NCBI GenBank assembly: GCA_046483985.1
Contig: JAWOCD010000057.1
Coordinates: forward strand, 64,001 to 128,000
Source: Promethearchaeia archaeon
GTDB lineage: Archaea; Asgardarchaeota; Lokiarchaeia; Sigyniarchaeales; SOKP01
Length of the DNA stretch: 64,000 bases
Direction: 5' to 3'
The notes under the pieces were generated by a model. That model worked only from the letters and a program-made list of their open reading frames with translations, was not told the DNA's origin and searched no databases. The translations under genes were made by a program, and so were the position numbers. Shown here in pieces: positions 26,988 through 39,996 of this stretch. The first letter of the stretch is position 1. Every line of letters begins with the position of its first letter.

Positions 26988-27764
26988 ATGAGACATTTAG
27001 ATTATAAGACACTTACAGAGAATATACAAGATTGGATTAGGGAATATACAGAAAAAGCTGGAAGTGAAGGAATTGTAGTGGGATTAAGCGGAGGGATAGA
27101 TAGTTCCGTAACTGCTGCACTTTCAGTCCGCGCAATTGGAAAAAATAATGTGCTAGGATTTAGTCTTCCATGCAATTCCATGCCTAAAGATTATGAGGAT
27201 GCAAAATTAATCGCTGAATTTTTGGATATTGATTTCCGTGTCGTTGATCTTTCCTCTATATATGATGAATGTAAAGATATCTTTCTTCCAAAACTCCAAG
27301 TGGAAAAGAATATTAAAATAGCTAAAGCAAACATTAAACCTCGGTTACGTATGGTAACTCTCTATTTTTTTGGTCAAGCAGAGGGAAATTATTTGATCGG
27401 CGGGACTGGAAACCGAACCGAGATTGCGATAGGTTATTTTACTAAATATGGAGATGGAGGTGTTGATATTGAACCACTTGGCACTTTGTATAAAAGCGAG
27501 GTATATGAAGTCGCACAAATATTAGATGTTCCCAAAAAGATTATAAATAGGGCTCCTTCTGCAGGTCTATGGAAAGAACAAACTGACGAGGGAGAGATTG
27601 GAATTACTTATGATGAGTTAGATGAAATTCTTTACAGAATAGATTCTAATTTATCATTAGATGAACTTAACCAAAAGAATGTAAAAAAAGTTAAAAAAAT
27701 GTTGAACTCTTCAGAACATAAAAAAAAAATGCCCCCCGTATATAAAATAAAACAAGGAGATTAA
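26988..27764 (+). CDS. nadE: NH3-dependent NAD+ synthetase
   Basis: GLSGGIDS, NIKPRLRM, GYFTKYGDGG, PSAGLW..QTDE. Confidence 0.96.
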   Translation: MRHLDYKTLTENIQDWIREYTEKAGSEGIVVGLSGGIDSSVTAALSVRAIGKNNVLGFSLPCNSMPKDYEDAKLIAEFLDIDFRVVDLSSIYDECKDIFLPKLQVEKNIKIAKANIKPRLRMVTLYFFGQAEGNYLIGGTGNRTEIAIGYFTKYGDGGVDIEPLGTLYKSEVYEVAQILDVPKKIINRAPSAGLWKEQTDEGEIGITYDELDEILYRIDSNLSLDELNQKNVKKVKKMLNSSEHKKKMPPVYKIKQGD

Positions 27765-29290
27765 ATATTAGAGATAATCTTCCGAATGCTCGTAATTCTC
27801 TGGGAAATTTCGTCTAATTTATATTTCAACTCATCTCCCTTATTTTTAAACTCAAAATCGTCAACGGACCCTTTCTTATAGGATTTTTCTAATTCCTTAT
27901 AATTTTTTTCGAGAGAATATCGCCGACCTTCTAATGCAATTAATTCTTGGTACAAGGATTCTTTATCTTTAGGTAAATCCTCCTCGGAAAATGAAGCCTC
28001 CCTTTTTCTTGCCCCGGCTTGAGATTCATCGAATCCAAATATTGGTTTAGTTTTAATTTTTCCTCCTCCCGGAGCTTCCCCTCTTTTCCGTTTTCTGCCT
28101 CCTCTTTTTCGAGGAGGGGGGGCATTTTTAGATACTGGTTGCACGTTTTTCTCCGGATCTTTTTTACGTTTGGGTTTTTTTTTTGATCTGCCTACTGAGG
28201 AGAAAACATTAAAAAGATCATCACTTTTGGCTTGTTCTTCCTCTTCTGTATCGGAAACTTCTACTACTTTTACGGGTGAAATTTTAGGCTTTTTTTTCGC
28301 TCCTGGTGAGACCTTTGGTTTTTCAGTAGAAGCTGGCGAAATTTTGGGCTTTTCTTGAGTCACAGGGGATATCTTCTGTTTCTGTTGAGCTTCAGGTTTA
28401 GTTTTTGTTTTTTCGGTGGACCCAGGAGATACCTTCGGTTTCTGAGGAGATACAGGTGAAATTTTGGGCTTCTCCTTCACTTGTGGTGTAGTTTGCTCTT
28501 TCGGTTTTGGCTTCTCCTTCGGTTCCGGCTGCTTTTGCGGTTGTACTTTCACTTGTGGTGTAGTTTGCTCTTTCGGTTTTGGCTTCCCTTTCGGTTCCGG
28601 CTGCTTTTTAGATTCTTGTTTCTTTTCGGATTTTTTCTCCGGACCACCAATATGAGGTATTTTAATCTCTGGAGGGGGTAATTTCGACTTTTTTTTAGAT
28701 TTTTTCGCTTTTGGTTTCACTCTTTCGGATTTTTCTTCCTTTTTTGGCTCTTTTTTTGCTTTCGGCTCTTCTTGTAACTTTTTTTCCTTCTCTTTTAACT
28801 CTTCCTTTAAATTTTCGATTTTACTTTTTAATCCTTCAATTGTGCCTTTAAATTCTTCGGATACTTGGGCAACGATTTGATCTATGTCAATATTCTGGGC
28901 GATTTCACCCTTTTCGGAAACCTCAGCGGATTTAGCTGCTTCCTTTTCAAATGCTTCCTCAATTGCTTTTTCTTTCTCCTTTGTGGGTTTTGCTTCAGTT
29001 TGTTTCTTACCTTGAGCTAACTCTACAACACGTTCAATATTATCTGATAATCCTTCAACTTCATTAAACCATAACTCTAGTGTATCCCAATTTTCTAATT
29101 TATCCAAAGCTGTCTCTATAGGATTTTTAAGTTCGCTATTTTTATTGAATTTTTCTAGCTCTTTGAATTTTTTAATCAATTTTTCCCTTGCCTCGATCTC
29201 ATCATCAGGCGTAGGTTCTTCATCACGTAAAAAAATTAAAATCTCTTTTATCTCTTGTATCGTTGAATTAAATTTTTCTTCATTACTCAT
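27761..29290 (-). CDS. Coiled-coil protein with a long Lys/Pro-rich disordered linker
   Basis: Helical N- and C-termini; six KPK[IV]SP-type repeats; duplicated KQPEPK..EQTTPQVK. Confidence 0.8.
   Translation of the reverse strand: MSNEEKFNSTIQEIKEILIFLRDEEPTPDDEIEAREKLIKKFKELEKFNKNSELKNPIETALDKLENWDTLELWFNEVEGLSDNIERVVELAQGKKQTEAKPTKEKEKAIEEAFEKEAAKSAEVSEKGEIAQNIDIDQIVAQVSEEFKGTIEGLKSKIENLKEELKEKEKKLQEEPKAKKEPKKEEKSERVKPKAKKSKKKSKLPPPEIKIPHIGGPEKKSEKKQESKKQPEPKGKPKPKEQTTPQVKVQPQKQPEPKEKPKPKEQTTPQVKEKPKISPVSPQKPKVSPGSTEKTKTKPEAQQKQKISPVTQEKPKISPASTEKPKVSPGAKKKPKISPVKVVEVSDTEEEEQAKSDDLFNVFSSVGRSKKKPKRKKDPEKNVQPVSKNAPPPRKRGGRKRKRGEAPGGGKIKTKPIFGFDESQAGARKREASFSEEDLPKDKESLYQELIALEGRRYSLEKNYKELEKSYKKGSVDDFEFKNKGDELKYKLDEISQRITSIRKIISNI
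28476..28608. repeat. Near-perfect ~61-bp direct repeat, period 72 bp, inside the CDS
   Basis: TTCACTTGTGGTGTAGTTTGCTCTTTCGGTTTTGGCTT...GGTTCCGGCTGCTTTT at 28476 and 28548. Confidence 0.9.
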
Positions 29291-30947: not shown

Positions 30948-31149
30948 ATAAACACATTTAATAATATCTTAATTTTATAACTTTAAATGTTTAAAATGTA
31001 AAAATCAATATTAATTTTTTGGTTGTATTTGGGAAATTGGATAGATGACTTACTTCTTGTTCAATTCTTCTATGAAGAGCACTAAATTTTTTCAATTTTA
31101 GAAAAAAAGTATCAAATCACAAACCAAAAAGGTCATTGATAAAAGACAG

Positions 31150-32655
31150 TTAGTAAGATGGGGCACGTGCATTACTCTCATTCTTCTCGTTTATAGCTTT
31201 ACGACAGTCTTTACGCTTAAAACCTGCAATTTTTTTTAAGAGGGGTAATCCCGGTTTTACATGGTCTAATGGTTTAGATTCAATAAGATCATTTTCGAGT
31301 AAGGCATTATAGAGTTGCCTTCCCTTGGGAGTTCTAATTAATACAGCATTCCAACCCGATGGTGCGCCAATTGATCCAATTGAAATATCGGCTGATTCCG
31401 ATGTCAAATCAAAACAGACTTCACAATCTTCTCGAGCAAGGGCAGAGATCTCATTTATTGCGATCTTATGTTCTTCTCCATCTCGGGTGTACACGAAAAA
31501 TTTTCCCTTATTAATATCCGTTTTCGTCACATTATGCACATCAACATCGAGCTTCTCGCATATTTTCAAAAATCCCTCTTCGTAGGGAAATGATTCCATA
31601 CAAAAGATACCTATTCGATATATAACATTGTTTATTGTTGGGATACCAATATTATATAAGTTTGATTTAAGAAGAGCTTGCATTTGACAAGGAACACCTA
31701 TCGCTGCAATCCTCGCATCTTTTAGATTCTCTTTATTTAAAAGGGATAAGTTGGGATTATTAACGTATTTAGTCCCAGCCGCTGCGATGAGATCTTCTTC
31801 ATTTTGAAGGATCTTCGGTTCTGGGCACCATAATCTTTCACTCATGGTAGCACCGAGTGCATAATCGATTTTCTCATTGTTTAATAAATAATAAATGCTG
31901 GTTGTAGAAATTCCGCCATCTTGGCAAACCTCTTTAATCTTGTCTACTTTTGTTTGGGCACAGTATGCTTCCATGAAGGGGCCAATATTACCATAATCCT
32001 TAATTTCTCTTGAATCTGATTGCTTTAGGTTTAGGATATCAACCGGCAAATAAGAACGAGGACATACAAAATAGCATAATCCACACCGGACACACATATC
32101 ATCATCTATCTCTCCAAATCCATTTTCGATAGAAATACAATCCATTGGACATATTCCCGCACATAGTCCACAACCGCTACAAGTCTCTGAATCAAAAATC
32201 ACTTTTACGGGTTCGTATATCGATTTCAATTCGGAAATGTCATCATCATTAATTTTGATCTTTATTTCCTTAAGTAATTTTTCTGATTGAGTGTTCTCTT
32301 CCCTCTTTCTCTTTTCAAATTTATAATCTACATCAATTAAGTTTTCTTGATTGAGAAGTTCTAAATATCCGAGGGTCTTACGCAGAGGGATAGAGTACTT
32401 TTCAGAAAATTTTGTTAATTCATTCAAGCCATTAGTTTGATTACTATTTAAGAATTCTAAAAGAGAATATTTCTGTTCTTCTTCATCAAACATCTTAAAA
32501 AATATTTTCTCATATTCCGACTCACTATAAACTCCCGCATCCAAAATTTCTTGTTTTGCATCTATTAATGCTCTCACCCTGTATGATTCCAGAGCATCTG
32601 CAACTCGCTTCAAATACTCTTTTGTGATTTTATTTTCTAGTTTTTGATTACTCAT
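31150..32655 (-). CDS. Coenzyme F420 hydrogenase/dehydrogenase beta-subunit (FrhB-like) with a 2x[4Fe-4S] ferredoxin domain and an N-terminal extension
   Basis: CSGCGLCAGICP, CVRCGLCYFVCP, QDGG, AAGTKY, GVPCQ, IGIFCMESF, CEVC.D...ADISIG. Confidence 0.9.
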   Translation of the reverse strand: MSNQKLENKITKEYLKRVADALESYRVRALIDAKQEILDAGVYSESEYEKIFFKMFDEEEQKYSLLEFLNSNQTNGLNELTKFSEKYSIPLRKTLGYLELLNQENLIDVDYKFEKRKREENTQSEKLLKEIKIKINDDDISELKSIYEPVKVIFDSETCSGCGLCAGICPMDCISIENGFGEIDDDMCVRCGLCYFVCPRSYLPVDILNLKQSDSREIKDYGNIGPFMEAYCAQTKVDKIKEVCQDGGISTTSIYYLLNNEKIDYALGATMSERLWCPEPKILQNEEDLIAAAGTKYVNNPNLSLLNKENLKDARIAAIGVPCQMQALLKSNLYNIGIPTINNVIYRIGIFCMESFPYEEGFLKICEKLDVDVHNVTKTDINKGKFFVYTRDGEEHKIAINEISALAREDCEVCFDLTSESADISIGSIGAPSGWNAVLIRTPKGRQLYNALLENDLIESKPLDHVKPGLPLLKKIAGFKRKDCRKAINEKNESNARAPSY

Positions 32656-32701
32656 AATCCTTCGAAATTTTCTTTTGTTAATTCTTTAAAAAATTAAAAA
32701 T

Positions 32702-32775
32702 ATCCGAATAAACCCAGGCCATGGGTCAGTTTCCATTCAACTATAATTTATTTGAACGGATCATCCTACATCGGA
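32702..32775 (-). promoter_or_regulatory. Candidate SECIS element in the 3' UTR of mvhD
   Basis: Immediately after the stop: UCCGAUGUAGG-AUGA-UCCGUUCAA-(AUAAAUUAUAG)-UUGAAUGGA-AACUGA-CCCAUGGCCUGGG-UUUAUUCGGA; 9-bp stem with A-rich loop, preceded by AUGA and closed by a lower helix. Confidence 0.7.
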
Positions 32776-33201
32776 TTAGTTATTTGTGCCTAATAGAGGA
32801 GGTAATGCTTCTATTTTTTTGGTAATATCGTCCACGGAATTAGTAAACTTTTCAACATCTGCCGCACTGCAAAAGTATTGCTGGAGACGATCTTTAGAGA
32901 TTCCTACATGGTCAAGGATCTGTTTCAGAACCTTCACATGGGAATAAGTGTTAATATTTCCTTGGCCAAATTCACATTCTCCTTCTTCTCAGCCAATAAT
33001 TGCTACGCCATCAGCACCGTTTAAAAAGCATTTCATAATAAGATGAATTCCAATTCGTCCCGTACATCGCACGCGTATTAGATGAACCTTAGTAGAATAT
33101 GATGTCCTTGTAGTTCCCGTTAAATCCGCAGCAGAATATCCTCATTTTTCACATCCAAAGGCAATAATTCTTTTCTCATCGACATTGTTAGATTCGTTCA
33201 T
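32776..33201 (-). CDS. mvhD: Selenoprotein MvhD/VhuD (hydrogenase delta, [2Fe-2S]), 141 aa, Sec at codons 20 and 71 (not in ORF track)
   Basis: MNESNNVDEKRIIAFGCEK-U-GYSAADLTG...IRVRCTGRI...GADGVAIIG-U-EEGECEF..GN; TGA at 33142-33144 and 32989-32991 fall on conserved Cys positions; GGTGA SD. Confidence 0.93.
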
Positions 33202-33220
33202 ATCTTCTCACCTAGTCTGT

Positions 33221-35215
33221 TTAATTTTCTGCTATTTTCTGTTTTTCTCCAAGGTATTTTAATTCCCCAGTAATCCCCTTGATCTCCTTCTCAAATTGTT
33301 TATCTCTAAAATATTTAATACTAATTGCCCGTGCTGGACAAGAAGTCACACATACACCACAACCTTTACATTTTAATTGATTCACATGGGCAATCCCATC
33401 TTCATCCACGGAAATTGCTTCAAAATTACAAACTTTCTCACAACGATGACATCCCATACATAGATCCTCAGCTATTTCCGCTATAATAAGTTCTTGACTA
33501 ATTGTATCATTAGAGAGTAGTCGTGCAGCTTTACTAGCTGCTGCAAGTGCAGTCGAAACGGAATATGGAATATTTTTGGGCCCTGCCGCGCAGCCAGCAA
33601 TATAGATTCCCATATTTTTCGTTTCTTGTGGTTTTAAGCATCCATGTACTTCAGAAAGAAAATCGTTGGGTCCCGTTGAGAGTCCCATTACCTTGGTTAT
33701 CTCTTCGGTTCCTTTTGAAGGAATAATTCCCGTTGATAAGACGACTAAATCGAAGTCATCGTGGGTTACCTCATCCAGAAGAGTATTATCATAAAACAAT
33801 TTCATAGTCCCGTCATCATTCATTTTAATATCTCCGGGCTTTCCTTTTATGAAATTGACCCCGGTTTCCCGAATTTTTCTGTAATACTCCTCATTACCCT
33901 TATCTGGTGATCTGATATCAATATAGAATATAAATACTTCCATATCAGGGTACTCTTGCTTTAACAACTGCGCATTTTTAAGCGCAACGTTACAGCACAC
34001 TCCAGAGCAATAGGGGTTCCCTCTTAGAGTTCTTGATCCCACGCATTGTATCATCGCAACTTTTTCAGGAACTTTTCCATCTGAAATTCGATGGACATGC
34101 CCTCCCGTTGGTCCAATGGGACTTAACATCCGCTCTAACTCTATCTGAGTTATTACATCGGGATAATAGCCATAGTTATATTCATTACTTTCCCAAATAG
34201 GATACTCGTCCCATCCAGTTGCCACTACTACTGAACCTACTGTAATGTCCAAATATTCTGCTTCTTGCTCAAAATCTATTGCCTCAGCAGGGCAATTTCT
34301 TTGACACGATTTACATTCAATGCACATATCCCGATCGATAAGCGCTAATTTCGGAACTGCTTGTGGAAATGGAACATAAATTGCTCTTCTTTCACCAATC
34401 CCTCTGTCAAACTCGTTAGGTACCCGGATTGGACATTTGGTAGTACATAAGCCACAGCCTGTACATTTATCAGTATCTACATATCTAGGGTTTTTCCGAA
34501 TCTTTACCTGATAATCCCCAGTAATTCCACTAAATTCAACAACCTCACTATACGTGAGAAGTTCGATATTTGGATGTTTTGAAGTATTCACCATTATCGG
34601 GGCTAAAACTCATATCCCACAATCATCGGTTGGGAAAATGCGATCTAATTGCGCCATTTTCCCCCCTATTGTAGGCTCTTTCTCTACTAAATAGACTTGT
34701 ATTCCTTCACTAGCTAAGTCTAGAGCAGCATTCATTCCAGCTATTCCAGCGCCAACAACGAGTACTGAATTTGTAATTGAAATCTCTTTTCTCGGGACAT
34801 CTTCTAATTCTCGTGCCCGATTGATCCCCGCGAGAACTAACCGTTTCGCTTTTTCGGTAGCTTTTTCCTTATCTCCTTGGTGAACAAAGGAGCATTGCTC
34901 TCGTAAATTAACCATCTGGAAATAATAGGGACTTAATCCCGCCTCTACCAAAACTGACCGATAGGTCGGTTCATGAATTTTGGGGGTACAAGCAGCCACC
35001 ACGACTCTATTTAAATCAAGCTCCAGAATATCATTTTTGATCATCTCTTGACCGGGATCTGAACACGTAAAGTCATTAGTTCTTGCCACGACAACGTCTG
35101 GAAGGGGTTCAACGAAATCACTCACAGCATCACAATCTACAGATGCACCAATGTTAACTCCTCAGCGACACACATAAACGCCAATTCTAATATCTTTGGT
35201 CTGATTTTCAGACAT
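33221..35215 (-). CDS. hdrA: Selenoprotein heterodisulfide reductase subunit A, 664 aa, Sec at codons 18 and 202 (ORF track splits it)
   Basis: MSENQTKDIRIGVYVCR-U-GVNIG (canonical VCHCG); FPTDDCGI-U-VLAP (canonical DCxxC); TGA at 35162-35164 and 34610-34612 are in one continuous frame with 34594->33221; GAGIAG FAD motif and ferredoxin motifs. Confidence 0.95.
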
Positions 35216-35587
35216 TTAATCCACCTTTTAGAGAACCACCATTCAATAATTTGATGTATACTTTTTATTTTCTCATATAAATTATAATAATAAATCTTAG
35301 TAAATAGAGAAATAATAGGAAAAATAAATAAATTTTGTTTAAGAAGCATAAGGTCTAATGCCTTCTCTTATAATTTGTTTAGTTCGGATGATTAGTTCCC
35401 AGATATTATTAAAATTCGAAAAAAAAGGCTAAAATTTATAGTAAATTTGTAAAAATATTTACGGAAATTGTTAGAAGTAAAAAACATCCATGTTAAACAT
35501 TTTACATATTTTTGTCCTATAAAAAATTGGAAAAAAGAGAGAATAACATTTAAAAATCTTTTTTTTAAACCGATAATTTTTTTAATT

Positions 35588-35920
35588 ATGTCTGAAAATG
35601 AAGAAAAAGAACCCACTCAAGAAGAGAAATTTGTTCAAAATTTTATGGAAACGGAGGGATTAAAAGGGCGTTCTACAGAAAACAAGATAAACGAAATTGT
35701 TGAAGATGTCGGATTAGATGAAGAGACAGTTAAGGAAAAATTTCTTCAGTTTAAAGAAAAGGAACATTTTGCCAATCAAATTATGGAGGAAGTGGGATTA
35801 AGGGGAAAGGTAAAACGCCTAAAAGTAATGAAAATTATGGACAAGGTGGGTTGGAATAAGAAAAAAATTAAAACTGCCCTTCAACGATCAACCATCGCCT
35901 CTCGAATTAACCATGAATAG
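35588..35920 (+). CDS. Hypothetical protein with an internal two-fold repeat
   Basis: ATG at 35588 preferred; FVQNFMETEGLKG..IVEDVGLD / FANQIMEEVGLRG..IMDKVGWN. Confidence 0.75.
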   Translation: MSENEEKEPTQEEKFVQNFMETEGLKGRSTENKINEIVEDVGLDEETVKEKFLQFKEKEHFANQIMEEVGLRGKVKRLKVMKIMDKVGWNKKKIKTALQRSTIASRINHE

Positions 35921-36030
35921 TTAACTAATTCTCACCGAGTTAAGAAATCCTAAAACAATTTATTTTCAATCCAAAAATAAATTAAAAACAATTGTTTATA
36001 ATAGAATAATTAAAAATTTGGACAGTTACA

Positions 36031-37323
36031 ATGCTCGATATAGAGTTATTTAGAGAAGATTTAGAAAGGATAATAGAATCCGAGAGAAATAGGTTTAAAG
36101 ATCCCTCAAATGCACGAAAAGTCCTCGAATATGATAAAAAATGGCGAGATGTTTTGGAAGAACTTCAAGAGTTACGGCATAGAAGAAACAAAATTTCGGA
36201 ATCAATCGGGGAGTTAAAAAAGGCAGGTAAGGATAAAGAAGCCAAAGATGCAATTGAGAAATCAAAAGATTACAAAGCAAAAATTGAAAAATTAGAAGCC
36301 TTAAAAGATCAATATCACGAAAAGAGAGAAGAATTCCGGTATGTAGTTGGAAATATACTCCACGATTCAGTACCTATTGCAGAAACTGAGGAAGACAATG
36401 AAATCGTAAGAATTGTAGGTGATAAAACCGAGTTTAGTTTTGATCCTCTTTCACATGTTGATCTGGTTGAACTTATCAACGGAGCTGATACTGAAAAAGC
36501 TTCCAGAGTCGTGGGCTCAAGATTTTATTACCTAAAAAACGATCTTGTATCACTCAACATCGCATTAATGAAATTTGCCTTGGAGCACTTAATAGAAAAG
36601 GGATTTACACCGATGTGGACACCTTTTTTTGTAAAGCATGAGGTGATCAAAGCAGCTGCTGAGCTCGCTGATTTTGAAGAACAATTGTATAAGATTGAGG
36701 GAGAAGATCTATATCTGATTGCAACTTCCGAACAGACCATAGCTGCTTACCATTATGACGAGATTATCAATCCTGATGAGTTACCGTTGAAATATGCAGG
36801 GGTATCATCATGTTTTAGAAGAGAAGCGGGATCTCATGGAAGAGATACCTTAGGTATATTCAGAGTTCATCAATTTGAAAAAATTGAACAATATATTTTC
36901 TGCAAACCAGGAAATTCATGGGAGTATCATGAAGAATTAATAAAGAATGCAGAAGAATTATATAAAAAACTGGGGCTCCCATACCGAATTGTTAATATTG
37001 CTTCCGGTGATTTAAATGATAACGCTTCCAAAAAATATGATTTGGAAGCATGGTTCCCCGGATCAAATGTATATAGAGAACTTGTTTCTTGCAGTAATTG
37101 TTTAGATTATCAAGCAAGAAAATTAAAGATACGGATGGGATTGGTGGGGGCAAAAGAGGAAAAAGAAACTCTTCATACGTTAAACTCGACCGCAATTGCA
37201 ACCGAACGGACGTTATGCTGCTTGCTCGAAAACTATCAAAACGAAGATCATTCTATAGAAATCCCAAAAGTACTCCAGAAATATTTAAACGGCAAAAAAA
37301 TTATTAAACCTATGAATAATTAA
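36031..37323 (+). CDS. serS: Serine--tRNA ligase
   Basis: LIATSEQ, FRREAGSHG.DT.GIFRVHQF.K.EQ, ELVSCSNC.DYQ, HTLNST. Confidence 0.97.
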   Translation: MLDIELFREDLERIIESERNRFKDPSNARKVLEYDKKWRDVLEELQELRHRRNKISESIGELKKAGKDKEAKDAIEKSKDYKAKIEKLEALKDQYHEKREEFRYVVGNILHDSVPIAETEEDNEIVRIVGDKTEFSFDPLSHVDLVELINGADTEKASRVVGSRFYYLKNDLVSLNIALMKFALEHLIEKGFTPMWTPFFVKHEVIKAAAELADFEEQLYKIEGEDLYLIATSEQTIAAYHYDEIINPDELPLKYAGVSSCFRREAGSHGRDTLGIFRVHQFEKIEQYIFCKPGNSWEYHEELIKNAEELYKKLGLPYRIVNIASGDLNDNASKKYDLEAWFPGSNVYRELVSCSNCLDYQARKLKIRMGLVGAKEEKETLHTLNSTAIATERTLCCLLENYQNEDHSIEIPKVLQKYLNGKKIIKPMNN

Positions 37324-37338
37324 GATGTGATAATATAT

Positions 37339-38586
37339 ATGGTTGAAGTCAATTTAAAGAATTTTAAGGAATTTTATCAAAATAAGCTTAACGATATTTA
37401 TTACAAAGAAAAGAAGAAAACGGGTAAAATTCTTTCTAATATTGAAGAAAATTTGAAAAAAATTAAGTTGTGTATGGACCATTTTATCGAAGCTGGACAA
37501 GGAAAGGTAAGTAGTAAGGCAAAAAGATCTCTAAATCTTTTTACCAGCAGAGTTAAGGGAAGTATCGATGAGATCGAGATACCCAATGAAGAGAATATGA
37601 ACTATGAAAATTTGATGAGATTAATGAGTTCTTTAAAAAGCTTGTTTGCTGACGTGAGTGAAATTGCACGTAAATCTTTGCCTAAATTTAAGTCAGAAGT
37701 ACAATCAGAGATTAAAGAATTAAATTATTTAACGAGGAAATTGGGAAAGTATCAAGGTGTATTAGATAAGTTCTTACGAAAAAAATACGCGGGCGGAAAA
37801 TTAAGCCTAAAAGACGCCGAAGATTTAATGAAAAAAATACCGAAATTGTATTCATTAAAAGAAAATATTGAAAATGCAAAACGCGATCTGATCGAATTTG
37901 AAGAAGAATATGAAAAATATAATAGCAAAGCAGAGAAGCTAAAAGCCCAATTAGTTGAGTTAGAAAAGAGCAAACTATTCAAAAAATTAAAGAAAAGAAA
38001 GAAGCAAATCTTTAAACTGAAGCTTAAAATTAAAGATCAATTACATTTTAAAAAGGCATTGAAGAAACTAAAATTCGAAATAAATAAGGGGGATATTCCC
38101 ATATCTGGAGTCAGTGAACGGGAGATAGATAATTTCTTGAAAAACCCAGTAAGAAATCTCGTCAACCAAAGTAAGGACTTAAGAGAGTTTTCTAGCTTAC
38201 TAGTTCAAGTACGGCATGTGTTAGAAGAGAATTTGCTGAATATAAAAAATGAAACGAAGGAAAAGACAATTGAGCAAATCAATAAATTTTTCGAGGTTAA
38301 AAAGATTCATGATGATGTTAAGAAATTACGCAATCTAAAACAAGAGGTTAAAGATATTAAAAAAGAAATAAAGGATGTGGGATTGGGCGATAAAGTGGAA
38401 AAGCTAAAAGATGAAATCTCTCACAATTCTGTTAAATTAGAAAGAGCCGAAAATAAGCTAGATCGAAAGAAGAAAGATTATTTACGATATTTAGCAAGAT
38501 TAAAGAAAGAGCGGAAGATATTTCAAAAGTCGATTGAACAAGTCATAGAAGAACCCATAAAAATTTCAATTACCTTCTCATTTTAA
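37339..38586 (+). CDS. Lys-rich coiled-coil hypothetical protein
   Basis: Long heptad-like K/E/L pattern; ATG at 37339. Confidence 0.75.
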   Translation: MVEVNLKNFKEFYQNKLNDIYYKEKKKTGKILSNIEENLKKIKLCMDHFIEAGQGKVSSKAKRSLNLFTSRVKGSIDEIEIPNEENMNYENLMRLMSSLKSLFADVSEIARKSLPKFKSEVQSEIKELNYLTRKLGKYQGVLDKFLRKKYAGGKLSLKDAEDLMKKIPKLYSLKENIENAKRDLIEFEEEYEKYNSKAEKLKAQLVELEKSKLFKKLKKRKKQIFKLKLKIKDQLHFKKALKKLKFEINKGDIPISGVSEREIDNFLKNPVRNLVNQSKDLREFSSLLVQVRHVLEENLLNIKNETKEKTIEQINKFFEVKKIHDDVKKLRNLKQEVKDIKKEIKDVGLGDKVEKLKDEISHNSVKLERAENKLDRKKKDYLRYLARLKKERKIFQKSIEQVIEEPIKISITFSF

Positions 38587-38610: not shown

Positions 38611-39360
38611 TTACTGCTTCTGCTTATAAAGAAATTCCCGATTATTTAAGTTTTCGTTTTTACAAATTTTCTGATCCAAATTATGCTCCAAGAAGCGAAA
38701 AGTATAAGAATCGGTTAAATTAAACACCTTTAGATATTCAAAGGTTAATATTAGGTCATCCTTTATATCTACATCAAAACTTGCTCGTAGGGAATCATAG
38801 AGAACGAAACGGTCCACTTCTTGCTGGTTTGCAGTTTTATAATGAGCAACTAAAGAAGGGTCCGAAGGATCGTCAAATTGTGAACTAATTATATCCACGG
38901 GTCGTCTTCCTAAGACGGAAATACCTGCTGAATTAAGAGCTGGCGAGATTACCACTTGATTTTTTTTCAAGATTGAATTTAGAGCAAGAAGATTTTCTTG
39001 AGTTATTAAAGGTAAATCCAAAAAAACCACAAGAGATGCCCCCGCATTGAAGCGATTTATTGCAATCTCATCCATTTCCATGAAAATTGCATCAAAGTTT
39101 TTAGAATTCTGAGACCGTTCCTCTTTAAGAGCAATAAGATCATATATTTCTGCTAATTTTAAAATTCGCTCATCAGGAGAATAAACCACTTTTGCTCTAA
39201 AGGCATCAAGGGAAGTTACCTTTTCTGCTAAATCCTTAAAAAGAGCTCTTGTAAAATCTTGACGTTGTTCGGGTGTAAAGCACTCAGTTAACCGAGATTT
39301 ACTTTTACTTAGGTCTGCAACGGGAATAAATAGAATAGTCAATCTTAGAGCACCTTTCAC
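38611..39360 (-). CDS. cofC: 2-phospho-L-lactate/PEP guanylyltransferase (F420 biosynthesis), CofC-like
   Basis: IPV.....KSRL, DLPLI, FDVD...DL. Confidence 0.75.
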   Translation of the reverse strand: MKGALRLTILFIPVADLSKSKSRLTECFTPEQRQDFTRALFKDLAEKVTSLDAFRAKVVYSPDERILKLAEIYDLIALKEERSQNSKNFDAIFMEMDEIAINRFNAGASLVVFLDLPLITQENLLALNSILKKNQVVISPALNSAGISVLGRRPVDIISSQFDDPSDPSLVAHYKTANQQEVDRFVLYDSLRASFDVDIKDDLILTFEYLKVFNLTDSYTFRFLEHNLDQKICKNENLNNREFLYKQKQ

Positions 39361-39426
39361 TCTTTTATTTATAAAAGCTCACATAATTTAATAAATTACA
39401 GTAAATAGCTTATTAGGAAGAAAACC

Positions 39427-39996
39427 TCATTCAATATTACCTAAGATTTCCATAGACAACCATTTGAAAGCCTCATCCACATGTTTGTTGTCCTTTGCAG
39501 AAGACTCAAAAGATTTTACACCGTATTTTTCTGTAACCTCTTGAATCTCCGATTTAGACACTTCCCGTTGATCTTTAAGATCTAACTTATTTCCTACAAT
39601 TATAAACGGGATATCTCCGCTTAATTCCCGCATTTTCGAAATCCAAAAATCTAACTCTTCGAAACTTTCCTTATCTGAAAGGTCAAATACCACCATTGCC
39701 CCGAGCGCTTGGAGAAAATAATATTCTGTGACGAAAAGTTTATCCGATTGCCCTCCCAGATCCCAAAAATAAAGACGAAATCCCTTTTCGATAATTTCTT
39801 CTTTTAATTCCTTATCTATGTTAAAATCATTGCTTTCCTTCAAAAGGGGTTTAAGATTCATCTCCTTAATGAGAAAATTGGCTCCAATTGTTTGATCATA
39901 CTCATCACTGAACTGATCATCAACAAAACGGGCGAGGAGAGAGGTTTTTCCCACTGCTGGTGAACCTAAAATTATAACTTTTCCTCTATAACTCAT
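39427..39996 (-). CDS. Rab-like small GTPase
   Basis: GSPAVGKT, TIGANF, WDLGGQ, GNKLD, SAK. Confidence 0.92.
   Translation of the reverse strand: MSYRGKVIILGSPAVGKTSLLARFVDDQFSDEYDQTIGANFLIKEMNLKPLLKESNDFNIDKELKEEIIEKGFRLYFWDLGGQSDKLFVTEYYFLQALGAMVVFDLSDKESFEELDFWISKMRELSGDIPFIIVGNKLDLKDQREVSKSEIQEVTEKYGVKSFESSAKDNKHVDEAFKWLSMEILGNIE

Follow-up and report, generated by a model that had tools for sequence, protein, structure and literature searches.

Four in-frame UGA codons and a single lokiSECIS in a tandem hdrA-mvhD locus of a Promethearchaeia archaeon

Multi-selenocysteine HdrA and VhuD of Asgard archaea

According to the available part of the survey of Mariotti et al. 2016 (PMC4989117), the HdrA proteins of Lokiarchaeota can contain several selenocysteines (Sec), at five possible positions that always include the canonical site near residue 200. 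In this survey, VhuD carries two Sec and is always encoded just downstream of HdrA, the stop codon of hdrA is always UAA or UAG, and a single selenocysteine insertion sequence (SECIS), named lokiSECIS, is found only after VhuD, where it would serve up to six UGA codons over about 2 kb. The lokiSECIS is described there as an AUGA motif, a 9-bp stem, an 11-nucleotide (nt) loop with an A-rich start and a G at its end, and GA or AA after the stem. More recently, 1439 Asgard selenoproteins were catalogued, HdrA and FrhD/VhuD being the most numerous in the available part of this work (Huang et al. 2024, PMC11227280).

The locus presented here was found in a stretch of 64,000 nt from a Promethearchaeia archaeon (assembly GCA_046483985.1, contig JAWOCD010000057.1, positions 64,001 to 128,000), hereafter the window, to which all positions refer unless another contig is named. 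It consists of an hdrA gene closely followed by an mvhD (vhuD) gene, each with two in-frame TGA codons, and of a lokiSECIS downstream of mvhD (Table 1). Both genes are very probably intact selenoprotein genes carried by one mRNA, all four UGA codons being read as Sec by means of this single 3' element. The locus is one more instance of the published arrangement, as multi-Sec HdrA, the HdrA-VhuD tandem and this type of SECIS are already known.

Two reading frames interrupted by UGA only

Translation of the minus strand gives an hdrA frame with no stop besides the TGA codons 18 and 202 and an mvhD frame with none besides the TGA codons 20 and 71. A standard list of open reading frames gives both genes as fragments only. 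A preliminary description of this DNA had reported two in-frame TGA in each gene, and the coordinates and contexts that it gave are all correct.

Residues 8-648 of the 664 encoded by hdrA form a single collinear alignment, spanning both TGA codons, with 5odc_A (E 2e-215), the crystallised HdrA of Methanothermococcus thermolithotrophicus. Other solved HdrAs, 9sfi_A (E 4e-215), 8rvu_a and 7bkb_A, are likewise matched in one stretch. The protein shows the four domains of HdrA, i.e., an N-terminal Fe-S domain, a thioredoxin-reductase-like domain for flavin adenine dinucleotide, an inserted ferredoxin and a C-terminal ferredoxin. Searches of Pfam detect Fer4 motifs (residues ~245-317 and 579-632), Pyr_redox and a dinucleotide-binding motif (150-188). 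The ELER and ALKN motifs, both conserved, align with E356 and K409 of 5odc_A, which were tied to flavin-based bifurcation in the solved enzyme (PMC12054007). In the same way, the CX12CX3CC cluster motif is kept, C386, C399, C403 and C404 of 5odc_A being all aligned with cysteines (Cys). The top NCBIfam model is HdrA2 (860 bits, model positions 1-642). The scores stay below the curated cut-offs for HdrA2 (860 vs 1100 bits) and for HdrA (610 vs 1400 bits), so that no equivalog assignment is obtained; these models contain a fused MvhD or are methanogen-specific, and the scores speak against the label of CoM-S-S-CoB (coenzyme M-coenzyme B heterodisulfide) reductase orthologue, not against membership of the HdrA fold family.

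The product of mvhD matches Pfam FlpD (PF02662) along its whole length (E 5e-40; positions 1-122 of a 123-position model) and NCBIfam VhuD with 133 bits. Its matches among solved structures are 9sfi_K (E 8e-30) and 5odc_D, both at about E 1e-29. The five Cys/Sec positions conserved in the family, C17, U20, C46, U71 and C76 (U being Sec), align to Cys or X positions in these two chains. From these similarities, MvhD is predicted to be the [2Fe-2S] electron-transfer subunit that serves as an adaptor to HdrA. As MvhD also covers positions 645-772 of the HdrA2 model, following those covered by HdrA, the pair corresponds to a split form of the HdrA-MvhD fusion architecture.

The comparison with orthologues that the preliminary description had suggested places all four TGA codons on Cys/Sec columns. 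In HdrA, U202 falls on Cys197 of 5odc_A and on an X of 9sfi_A from Methanococcus maripaludis, and U18 aligns with Cys13 of 5odc_A, a position held by Cys in all the solved HdrAs, including 9sfi_A. In MvhD, U20 and U71 align exactly with the first and the second X of the VhuD chain 9sfi_K and with Cys in 5odc_D. The X residues of 9sfi_A and 9sfi_K are taken here as Sec, and 9sfi is taken as the M. maripaludis structure of PMC13518236, with Sec197 in HdrA.

These columns are conserved. A stop-to-stop alignment of 82 homologous HdrA frames from other genomes shows U (66), C (14) or a gap (2) at the codon-18 column, and U (69) or C (13) at the codon-202 column, and nothing else. In this orthologue group, no TGA was found outside these two columns and no sense codon other than Cys at them; decay of the flanking frames was looked for and was not seen. 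The nearest relatives are metagenome-assembled genomes (MAGs) labelled Promethearchaeia or Promethearchaeota, i.e., Loki-type Asgard archaea, which agrees with the taxon assumed in the preliminary description. Furthermore, among 301 scanned genomes of the phylum, each of the 68 genomes of the window's own family (68/68) has an hdrA match, and the matches listed include, for most genomes of this family, orthologues with 69-82% identity and at least two TGA. In addition, each of the four Sec codons of the locus is followed by a G (UGAG; 35162-35165, 34609-34612, 33141-33144 and 32988-32991, minus strand).

Automated gene callers split both genes, as would be expected of pseudogenes or of TGA codons created by assembly or sequencing errors. 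That either of these explains the locus is extremely improbable: the same two hdrA TGA recur in 66-69 of the 82 homologues, which come from independent assemblies, with no TGA at other columns. Moreover, hdrA and mvhD contain no frameshift and no other stop, and the catalytic motifs of hdrA are conserved.

The genome encodes the whole Sec machinery that the preliminary description had named, i.e., tRNA-Sec, SelB, SelD, PSTK and SepSecS. The tRNA-Sec scores 61 bits (gathering score 47) and is called SeC, with anticodon TCA, by ARAGORN; SepSecS (390 bits) is encoded about 240 bases downstream of it. SelB, a 470-residue GTPase encoded about 4 kb from these two genes, has archaeal SelB (4ac9, E 2e-78) as its best match among solved structures, followed by eukaryotic eEFSec. 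The top family of PSTK is TIGR03574, and selD has an in-frame TGA of its own. The genes of SelB, tRNA-Sec and SepSecS are all grouped within about 7 kb on another contig of the genome (C17:62200-69200). Seryl-tRNA synthetase (SerRS) is the enzyme that charges tRNA-Sec; a gene for it lies about 800 bases upstream of hdrA, in divergent orientation (36031-37323, plus strand), a vicinity that may be a coincidence. If the UGA codons are read as Sec, Sec-tRNA(Sec) would be made by SerRS, PSTK and SepSecS, with selenophosphate from SelD, and archaeal SelB/EFSec would deliver it to all four of them.

The UGA codons could also be read without Sec-tRNA, by near-cognate read-through with Cys or Trp or by a general reassignment of UGA. 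Cys is the alternative residue at each of the four columns, and its insertion would thus give a working protein. Such a decoding is nevertheless very improbable. The genome maintains a complete Sec pathway as well as a covarying SECIS (see the next section), and the solved proteins of M. maripaludis have an X, taken as Sec, at the same positions. UGA terminates 244 of the 1581 long stop-to-stop frames of the genome (~15%) and is therefore still an ordinary stop, which argues against a global reassignment. Given these stops and the recurrence of TGA at Cys/Sec columns, the readings as pseudogenes, as sequencing errors and as global reassignment of UGA were rejected.

A single SECIS after mvhD

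The element that follows mvhD displays every lokiSECIS feature given in the available parts of both surveys (PMC4989117, PMC11227280). Its AUGA motif begins 11 nt past the mvhD stop and is followed by helix II, its apical loop and a side hairpin, all enclosed by a lower helix (Table 1). The minimum free energy (MFE) fold of the element has a z-score of -2.1.

The structure is supported by covariation among 52 orthologous loci, taken as 130-nt windows that were anchored by tblastn solely on the C-terminus of MvhD and thus blind to RNA structure. From these, RNAalifold recovers helix II plus another small hairpin, and each of the 12 predicted pairs shows compensatory changes. Helix II alone is 95% paired, with compensatory changes in all its 9 pairs (9/9). 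The three-helix structure (lower helix, helix II and side hairpin) is 90.8% paired; none of 500 shuffles reaches any of five measures, and slid controls are 26-69% paired. The AUGA is invariant in the 52 loci and the AA 3' of helix II is shared by most orthologues.

The SECIS of this orthologue group is three-armed: within a lower helix conserved in sequence (UCCGA.../...UCGGA) lie the AUGA hairpin and another small hairpin, which is GC-rich and whose pairs covary. The Asgard SECIS is described as an upper stem, a core, a loop and a generic lower stem in the available parts of PMC4989117 and PMC11227280.

Table 1. Features of the hdrA-mvhD locus and of its 3' neighbour (positions in the window)
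Feature	Position	Strand	Description
hdrA	33221-35215	minus	664 codons; ATG 35215 to TAA 33221; UGA at codons 18 and 202
hdrA UGA codon 18	35162-35164	minus	VCR-U-GVN; N-terminal CxU site
hdrA UGA codon 202	34610-34612	minus	DCGI-U-VLAP; canonical HdrA Sec site
hdrA-mvhD spacer	33202-33220	minus	19 nt; GGTGA ribosome-binding-like motif (sequence)
mvhD/vhuD	32776-33201	minus	141 codons; ATG 33201 to TAA 32776; UGA at codons 20 and 71
mvhD UGA codon 20	33142-33144	minus	GCEK-U-GY
mvhD UGA codon 71	32989-32991	minus	IIG-U-EEGEC
Whole SECIS	32702-32776	minus	Pattern match, MFE fold, RNAalifold, covariance model
SECIS lower helix	32771-32776 with 32702-32707	minus	
SECIS AUGA	32761-32764	minus	Directly 5' of helix II
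SECIS helix II	32752-32760 with 32732-32740	minus	9 bp; UCCGUUCAA with UUGAAUGGA, one G-U
SECIS apical loop	32741-32751	minus	11 nt; AUAAAUUAUAG; A-rich start, final G
SECIS AA 3' of helix II	32730-32731	minus	
SECIS side hairpin	32711-32727	minus	
Two U-runs (U5 AA U6)	32688-32700	minus	Sequence, just 3' of SECIS
frhB/fdhB-like gene	31150-32655	minus	501 codons, no UGA; Pfam FrhB_FdhB_N/C and Fer4

When the whole window was searched without filters, a covariance model of the 47-nt SECIS core gave a sole significant match, the element itself (32724-32770, 59.8 bits, E 2.5e-11). The runner-up (15.7 bits, E 0.27) is outside the operon, and no match was obtained in the hdrA-mvhD spacer, which is too short for a SECIS. 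Hairpins of the bacterial type, directly 3' of UGA, were also looked for: the 70 nt that follow each of the four UGA fold no better than shuffles (z-scores from -1.35 to +1.58). A search of Rfam with a permissive threshold over positions 31000-36000 yields only two chance snoRNA-like matches and no SECIS family, including SECIS_1, so that Rfam is unusable for calling this element. Taken together, the single match of the model, the 19-nt spacer, the unremarkable folds after the UGA codons and the lack of an Rfam match leave the element after mvhD as the sole recognisable recoding signal, which corresponds to the published Loki cases.

Applied to the whole genome, the covariance model gave scores for 150 of 8420 candidates only and therefore provides no census. 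A crude search for the lokiSECIS pattern found 34 matches in the genome and 7 in the reversed sequence. It pointed to five more lokiSECIS-like hairpins with an A[UC]AAA... loop (C37:48101-48133, C95:49135-49167, C97:43833-43865, C101:22429-22461 and C107:2040-2072).

The hdrA and mvhD genes are most likely transcribed as one mRNA, with a single eukaryote-like SECIS (AUGA_AA subtype) at its 3' end. This SECIS would act on the two UGA of mvhD, 227 and 380 nt away, and, across the cistron boundary, on the two UGA of hdrA, about 1.85 and 2.4 kb away. Alternatively, the SECIS could serve mvhD only, the UGA codons of hdrA being recoded through another unrecognised signal, a separate transcript isoform or the use in trans of another SECIS. 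The distance of 1.85-2.4 kb with a stop and a restart in between, which has no experimental precedent, is in favour of this alternative, as is the fact that the shared-SECIS model was itself deduced from the absence of other motifs, as far as the available text of PMC4989117 tells. It seems unlikely, though, considering that the window holds no second element, that the two genes are separated by 19 nt only, that neither the folds after the UGA codons nor Rfam indicate another signal and that the tight order hdrA-mvhD-SECIS is kept in the four Sec pairs of the genome (4/4) and in the orthologous loci examined.

Several points weigh against the preferred reading, i.e., the decoding of all four UGA as Sec through the single SECIS. 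Sec insertion itself is deduced here from sequence analysis, and recoding by one SECIS over 2.4 kb, across a stop and a restart, is a published inference (PMC4989117, available part). The element has AA rather than GA 3' of helix II; in the available part of PMC11227280, Lokiarchaeial hdrA/frhD are reported to have an AUGA_AA subtype. PSTK (158 vs 290 bits) and SelB (235 vs 242 bits) score below the curated NCBIfam cut-offs and are still the best matches. Finally, the following frhB-like gene may or may not be co-transcribed with the pair, given the two U-runs just 3' of the SECIS, possibly an archaeal termination signal, and an AT-rich spacer. The proposal of the preliminary description that all four UGA are read as Sec nevertheless agrees with the Cys/Sec columns, the full Sec machinery and the lokiSECIS after mvhD, and is strongly supported on these grounds.

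Sec positions, Fe-S clusters and paralogous pairs

The preliminary description had regarded all four positions as Fe-S-ligating Cys. This stands for codon 202 only: in the crystal structure of HdrABC-MvhADG, Cys197 of one HdrA serves the partner HdrA as a ligand of its N-terminal [4Fe-4S] cluster (PMC9012536, available part). Even there, the 2026 cryo-electron microscopy study of M. maripaludis, in its available part, shows a density linking Sec197 with a cysteine and puts forward a redox relay between Cys and Sec instead (PMC13518236). For codon 18 and both mvhD sites, a role as Fe-S ligand is plausible; the available literature yielded no statement of ligand identity for codon 18, for the mvhD Sec sites or for the other N-terminal Cys of HdrA. 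If the [2Fe-2S] cluster of MvhD, with four ligands, is bound by Cys/Sec only, at least one Sec would have to be a ligand, since MvhD has five conserved Cys/Sec. In HdrA, neither 9sfi_A nor 8rvu_a keeps C108 or C28, which would leave positions 16, 18, 51 and 76 for three ligand slots.

The same description had singled out the Sec of the N-terminal CxC motif. This site does differ from methanogen HdrA, which has Cys there. It is also the commonest second site, with U in 66 of the 80 homologues that cover it and in all the Sec-HdrA paralogues of the genome (4/4). Among 25 HdrAs from a wider sample of the Asgard phylum, Sec was counted at positions 18 (22 of 25), 202 (24), 76 (7), 51 (3), 304 (2), 407 (2), 408 (1) and 622 (1), and at position 16 in none of the 25; in this sample, too, the columns 18 and 202 are occupied by U or C exclusively. 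Eight Cys/Sec positions are thus counted in HdrA vs the five given in the available part of the 2016 survey (PMC4989117). The N-terminal CxU, the commonest second Sec site in the present tallies, is very probably among these five.

Paralogous HdrAs with 3-5 Sec were observed in other Asgard genomes (loci L126-L132, L141 and L142) and in the same genome (C85:91191-93122). Three HdrA paralogues have Sec at 18, 51, 76 and 202 together, i.e., at Cys positions of the N-terminal domain and at that of Cys197. A further combination is a change of CC to UU at reference positions 407/408 plus a Sec in the last ferredoxin motif (reference position 622). In one paralogue (L130, G129:C125), a TGA occupies a conserved Leu column, reference position 165; it is the sole TGA outside Cys columns within the aligned region of the 25-HdrA sample and could reflect either a genuine defect or an error of assembly.

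In the genome itself, four hdrA-mvhD Sec pairs were found: this locus, one on contig C85, one on contig C42 and a second on the same contig. In all four, HdrA has the N-terminal CxU and the canonical Sec, MvhD has two Sec and the SECIS is in the same place, with stem sequences that differ and are compensated. The genome also has Cys-only and fused HdrA paralogues.

A BLASTP comparison of MvhD with HdrA's N-terminal domain was not significant (E 27). A profile-profile alignment with hhalign is weak (probability 29-31%, E ~6e-4) and sets MvhD U20 on HdrA U18, C46 on C51 and U71 on C76. As a lead, not a finding, this suggests that two related domains, one in HdrA and one in MvhD, may each have their Sec clustered at a single Fe-S site. 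It is a rather doubtful possibility that, in the low-potential branch, the Sec sites of HdrA gather at the N-terminal [4Fe-4S] cluster, 202 being the partner-donated Cys197 and 18, 51 and 76, three of four well-conserved Cys at the N-terminus, candidates for the other three ligands, and that the Sec of MvhD occupy homologous positions of its related fold. In that case, the cluster would have two Se ligands in this HdrA and selenium-only ligation in the four-Sec paralogues (18/51/76/202), and such clustering would tie in with a three-armed SECIS that acts over 2.4 kb and a cistron boundary.

Gene context and comparison with known systems

The gene that follows the SECIS encodes a protein with two [4Fe-4S] motifs and the N- and C-terminal domains of FrhB. 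It matches the NCBIfam FrhB subfamily (259 bits), and its best solved relative is FrhB 3zfs_C (E 2e-55). A region of about 150 residues at its N-terminus has no assignment. Of 65 orthologous loci, 58, among them the present one, have a close homologue (47-61% identity) in this place. The protein is likely an F420- or flavin-linked electron-input subunit, as judged from these matches. Neither hdrBC nor mvhAG was found adjoining the pair by domain searches of the window.

Genes of F420 biosynthesis type are present: cofH scores above cut-off in the genome (458 bits), and a CofC-like guanylyltransferase is encoded in the window (38611-39996, minus strand), next to a Ras-family small GTPase, a type of protein typical of Asgard genomes. 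Together, cofH and the CofC-like gene make an F420-type cofactor plausible. Two long open reading frames of the window, 27761-29290 (minus strand, 509 residues) and 37327-38586 (plus strand, 419 residues), have no Pfam or NCBIfam match.

The products of the pair would be a flavin-based electron-bifurcating HdrA and a [2Fe-2S] adaptor MvhD, which, with the FrhB-like protein, probably constitute an F420- or flavin-linked electron-input and bifurcation module. Clusters of HdrA with FrhB/FdhB homologues were proposed to encode F420-linked bifurcating or confurcating complexes in anaerobic methanotrophic archaea (ANME) and methanogens. In the same way, we infer that HdrA, MvhD and the FrhB-like protein could form an F420-linked bifurcating or confurcating module, its physiological donor and acceptor being presumed.

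This locus adds a well-documented example to the proposal that one eukaryote-like SECIS may recode UGA codons of two cistrons over distances of kilobases. It also confirms that these central redox genes are systematically broken up by gene callers in Asgard MAGs, so that the metabolism reconstructed for the archaea closest to eukaryotes is distorted. The locus makes small additions to what is known: a count of HdrA Sec positions across the phylum, the lower helix and side hairpin that this SECIS group conserves and an frhB-like third gene that is conserved as well.

The closest known systems are the HdrA.n-VhuD.n pairs of Lokiarchaeota. As far as the available parts of PMC4989117 and PMC11227280 go, the locus shares with them a multi-Sec HdrA, a two-Sec VhuD, a short spacer, the same strand, a UAA stop for hdrA and a SECIS only after VhuD. 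Nothing essential differs; those parts make no mention of a side hairpin placed between helix II and a conserved lower helix, nor of an frhB-like gene conserved in third place.

Compared with eukaryotic type I SECIS, the element has a shorter helix II (9 bp), an extra side hairpin and a position in a polycistronic archaeal mRNA. According to the available part of PMC4989117, SBP2 was not found in Lokiarchaeota, unlike in eukaryotic systems with type I SECIS.

The HdrA and VhuD of Methanococcales, such as those of the M. maripaludis Hdr-Vhu-Fwd complex (PDB 9sfi, PMC13518236), are orthologous and have Sec at the same three positions (HdrA 197 and both VhuD sites), whereas the selenoprotein HdrA of methanogens has Cys where this hdrA encodes the N-terminal Sec. 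The methanococcal genes use a euryarchaeal SECIS with a GAA_A bulge instead of a lokiSECIS. Furthermore, the methanococcal proteins belong to a methanogenic CoM-S-S-CoB reductase system that also comprises HdrBC and the Vhu hydrogenase, whereas neither hdrBC nor mvhAG is adjacent here.

The best-scoring named family for this pair is the HdrA2 of Methanosarcina (NF040770), an HdrA-MvhD fusion of the F420H2-dependent HdrA2B2C2. It differs from the present locus, where the protein is divided between two genes, four Cys are replaced by Sec, the score stays below the cut-off (860 vs 1100 bits) and hdrB2C2 is not adjacent. Considering the FrhB-like neighbour and the cofH and cofC-like genes, an F420-type electron input as in Methanosarcina HdrA2 is plausible for this pair.

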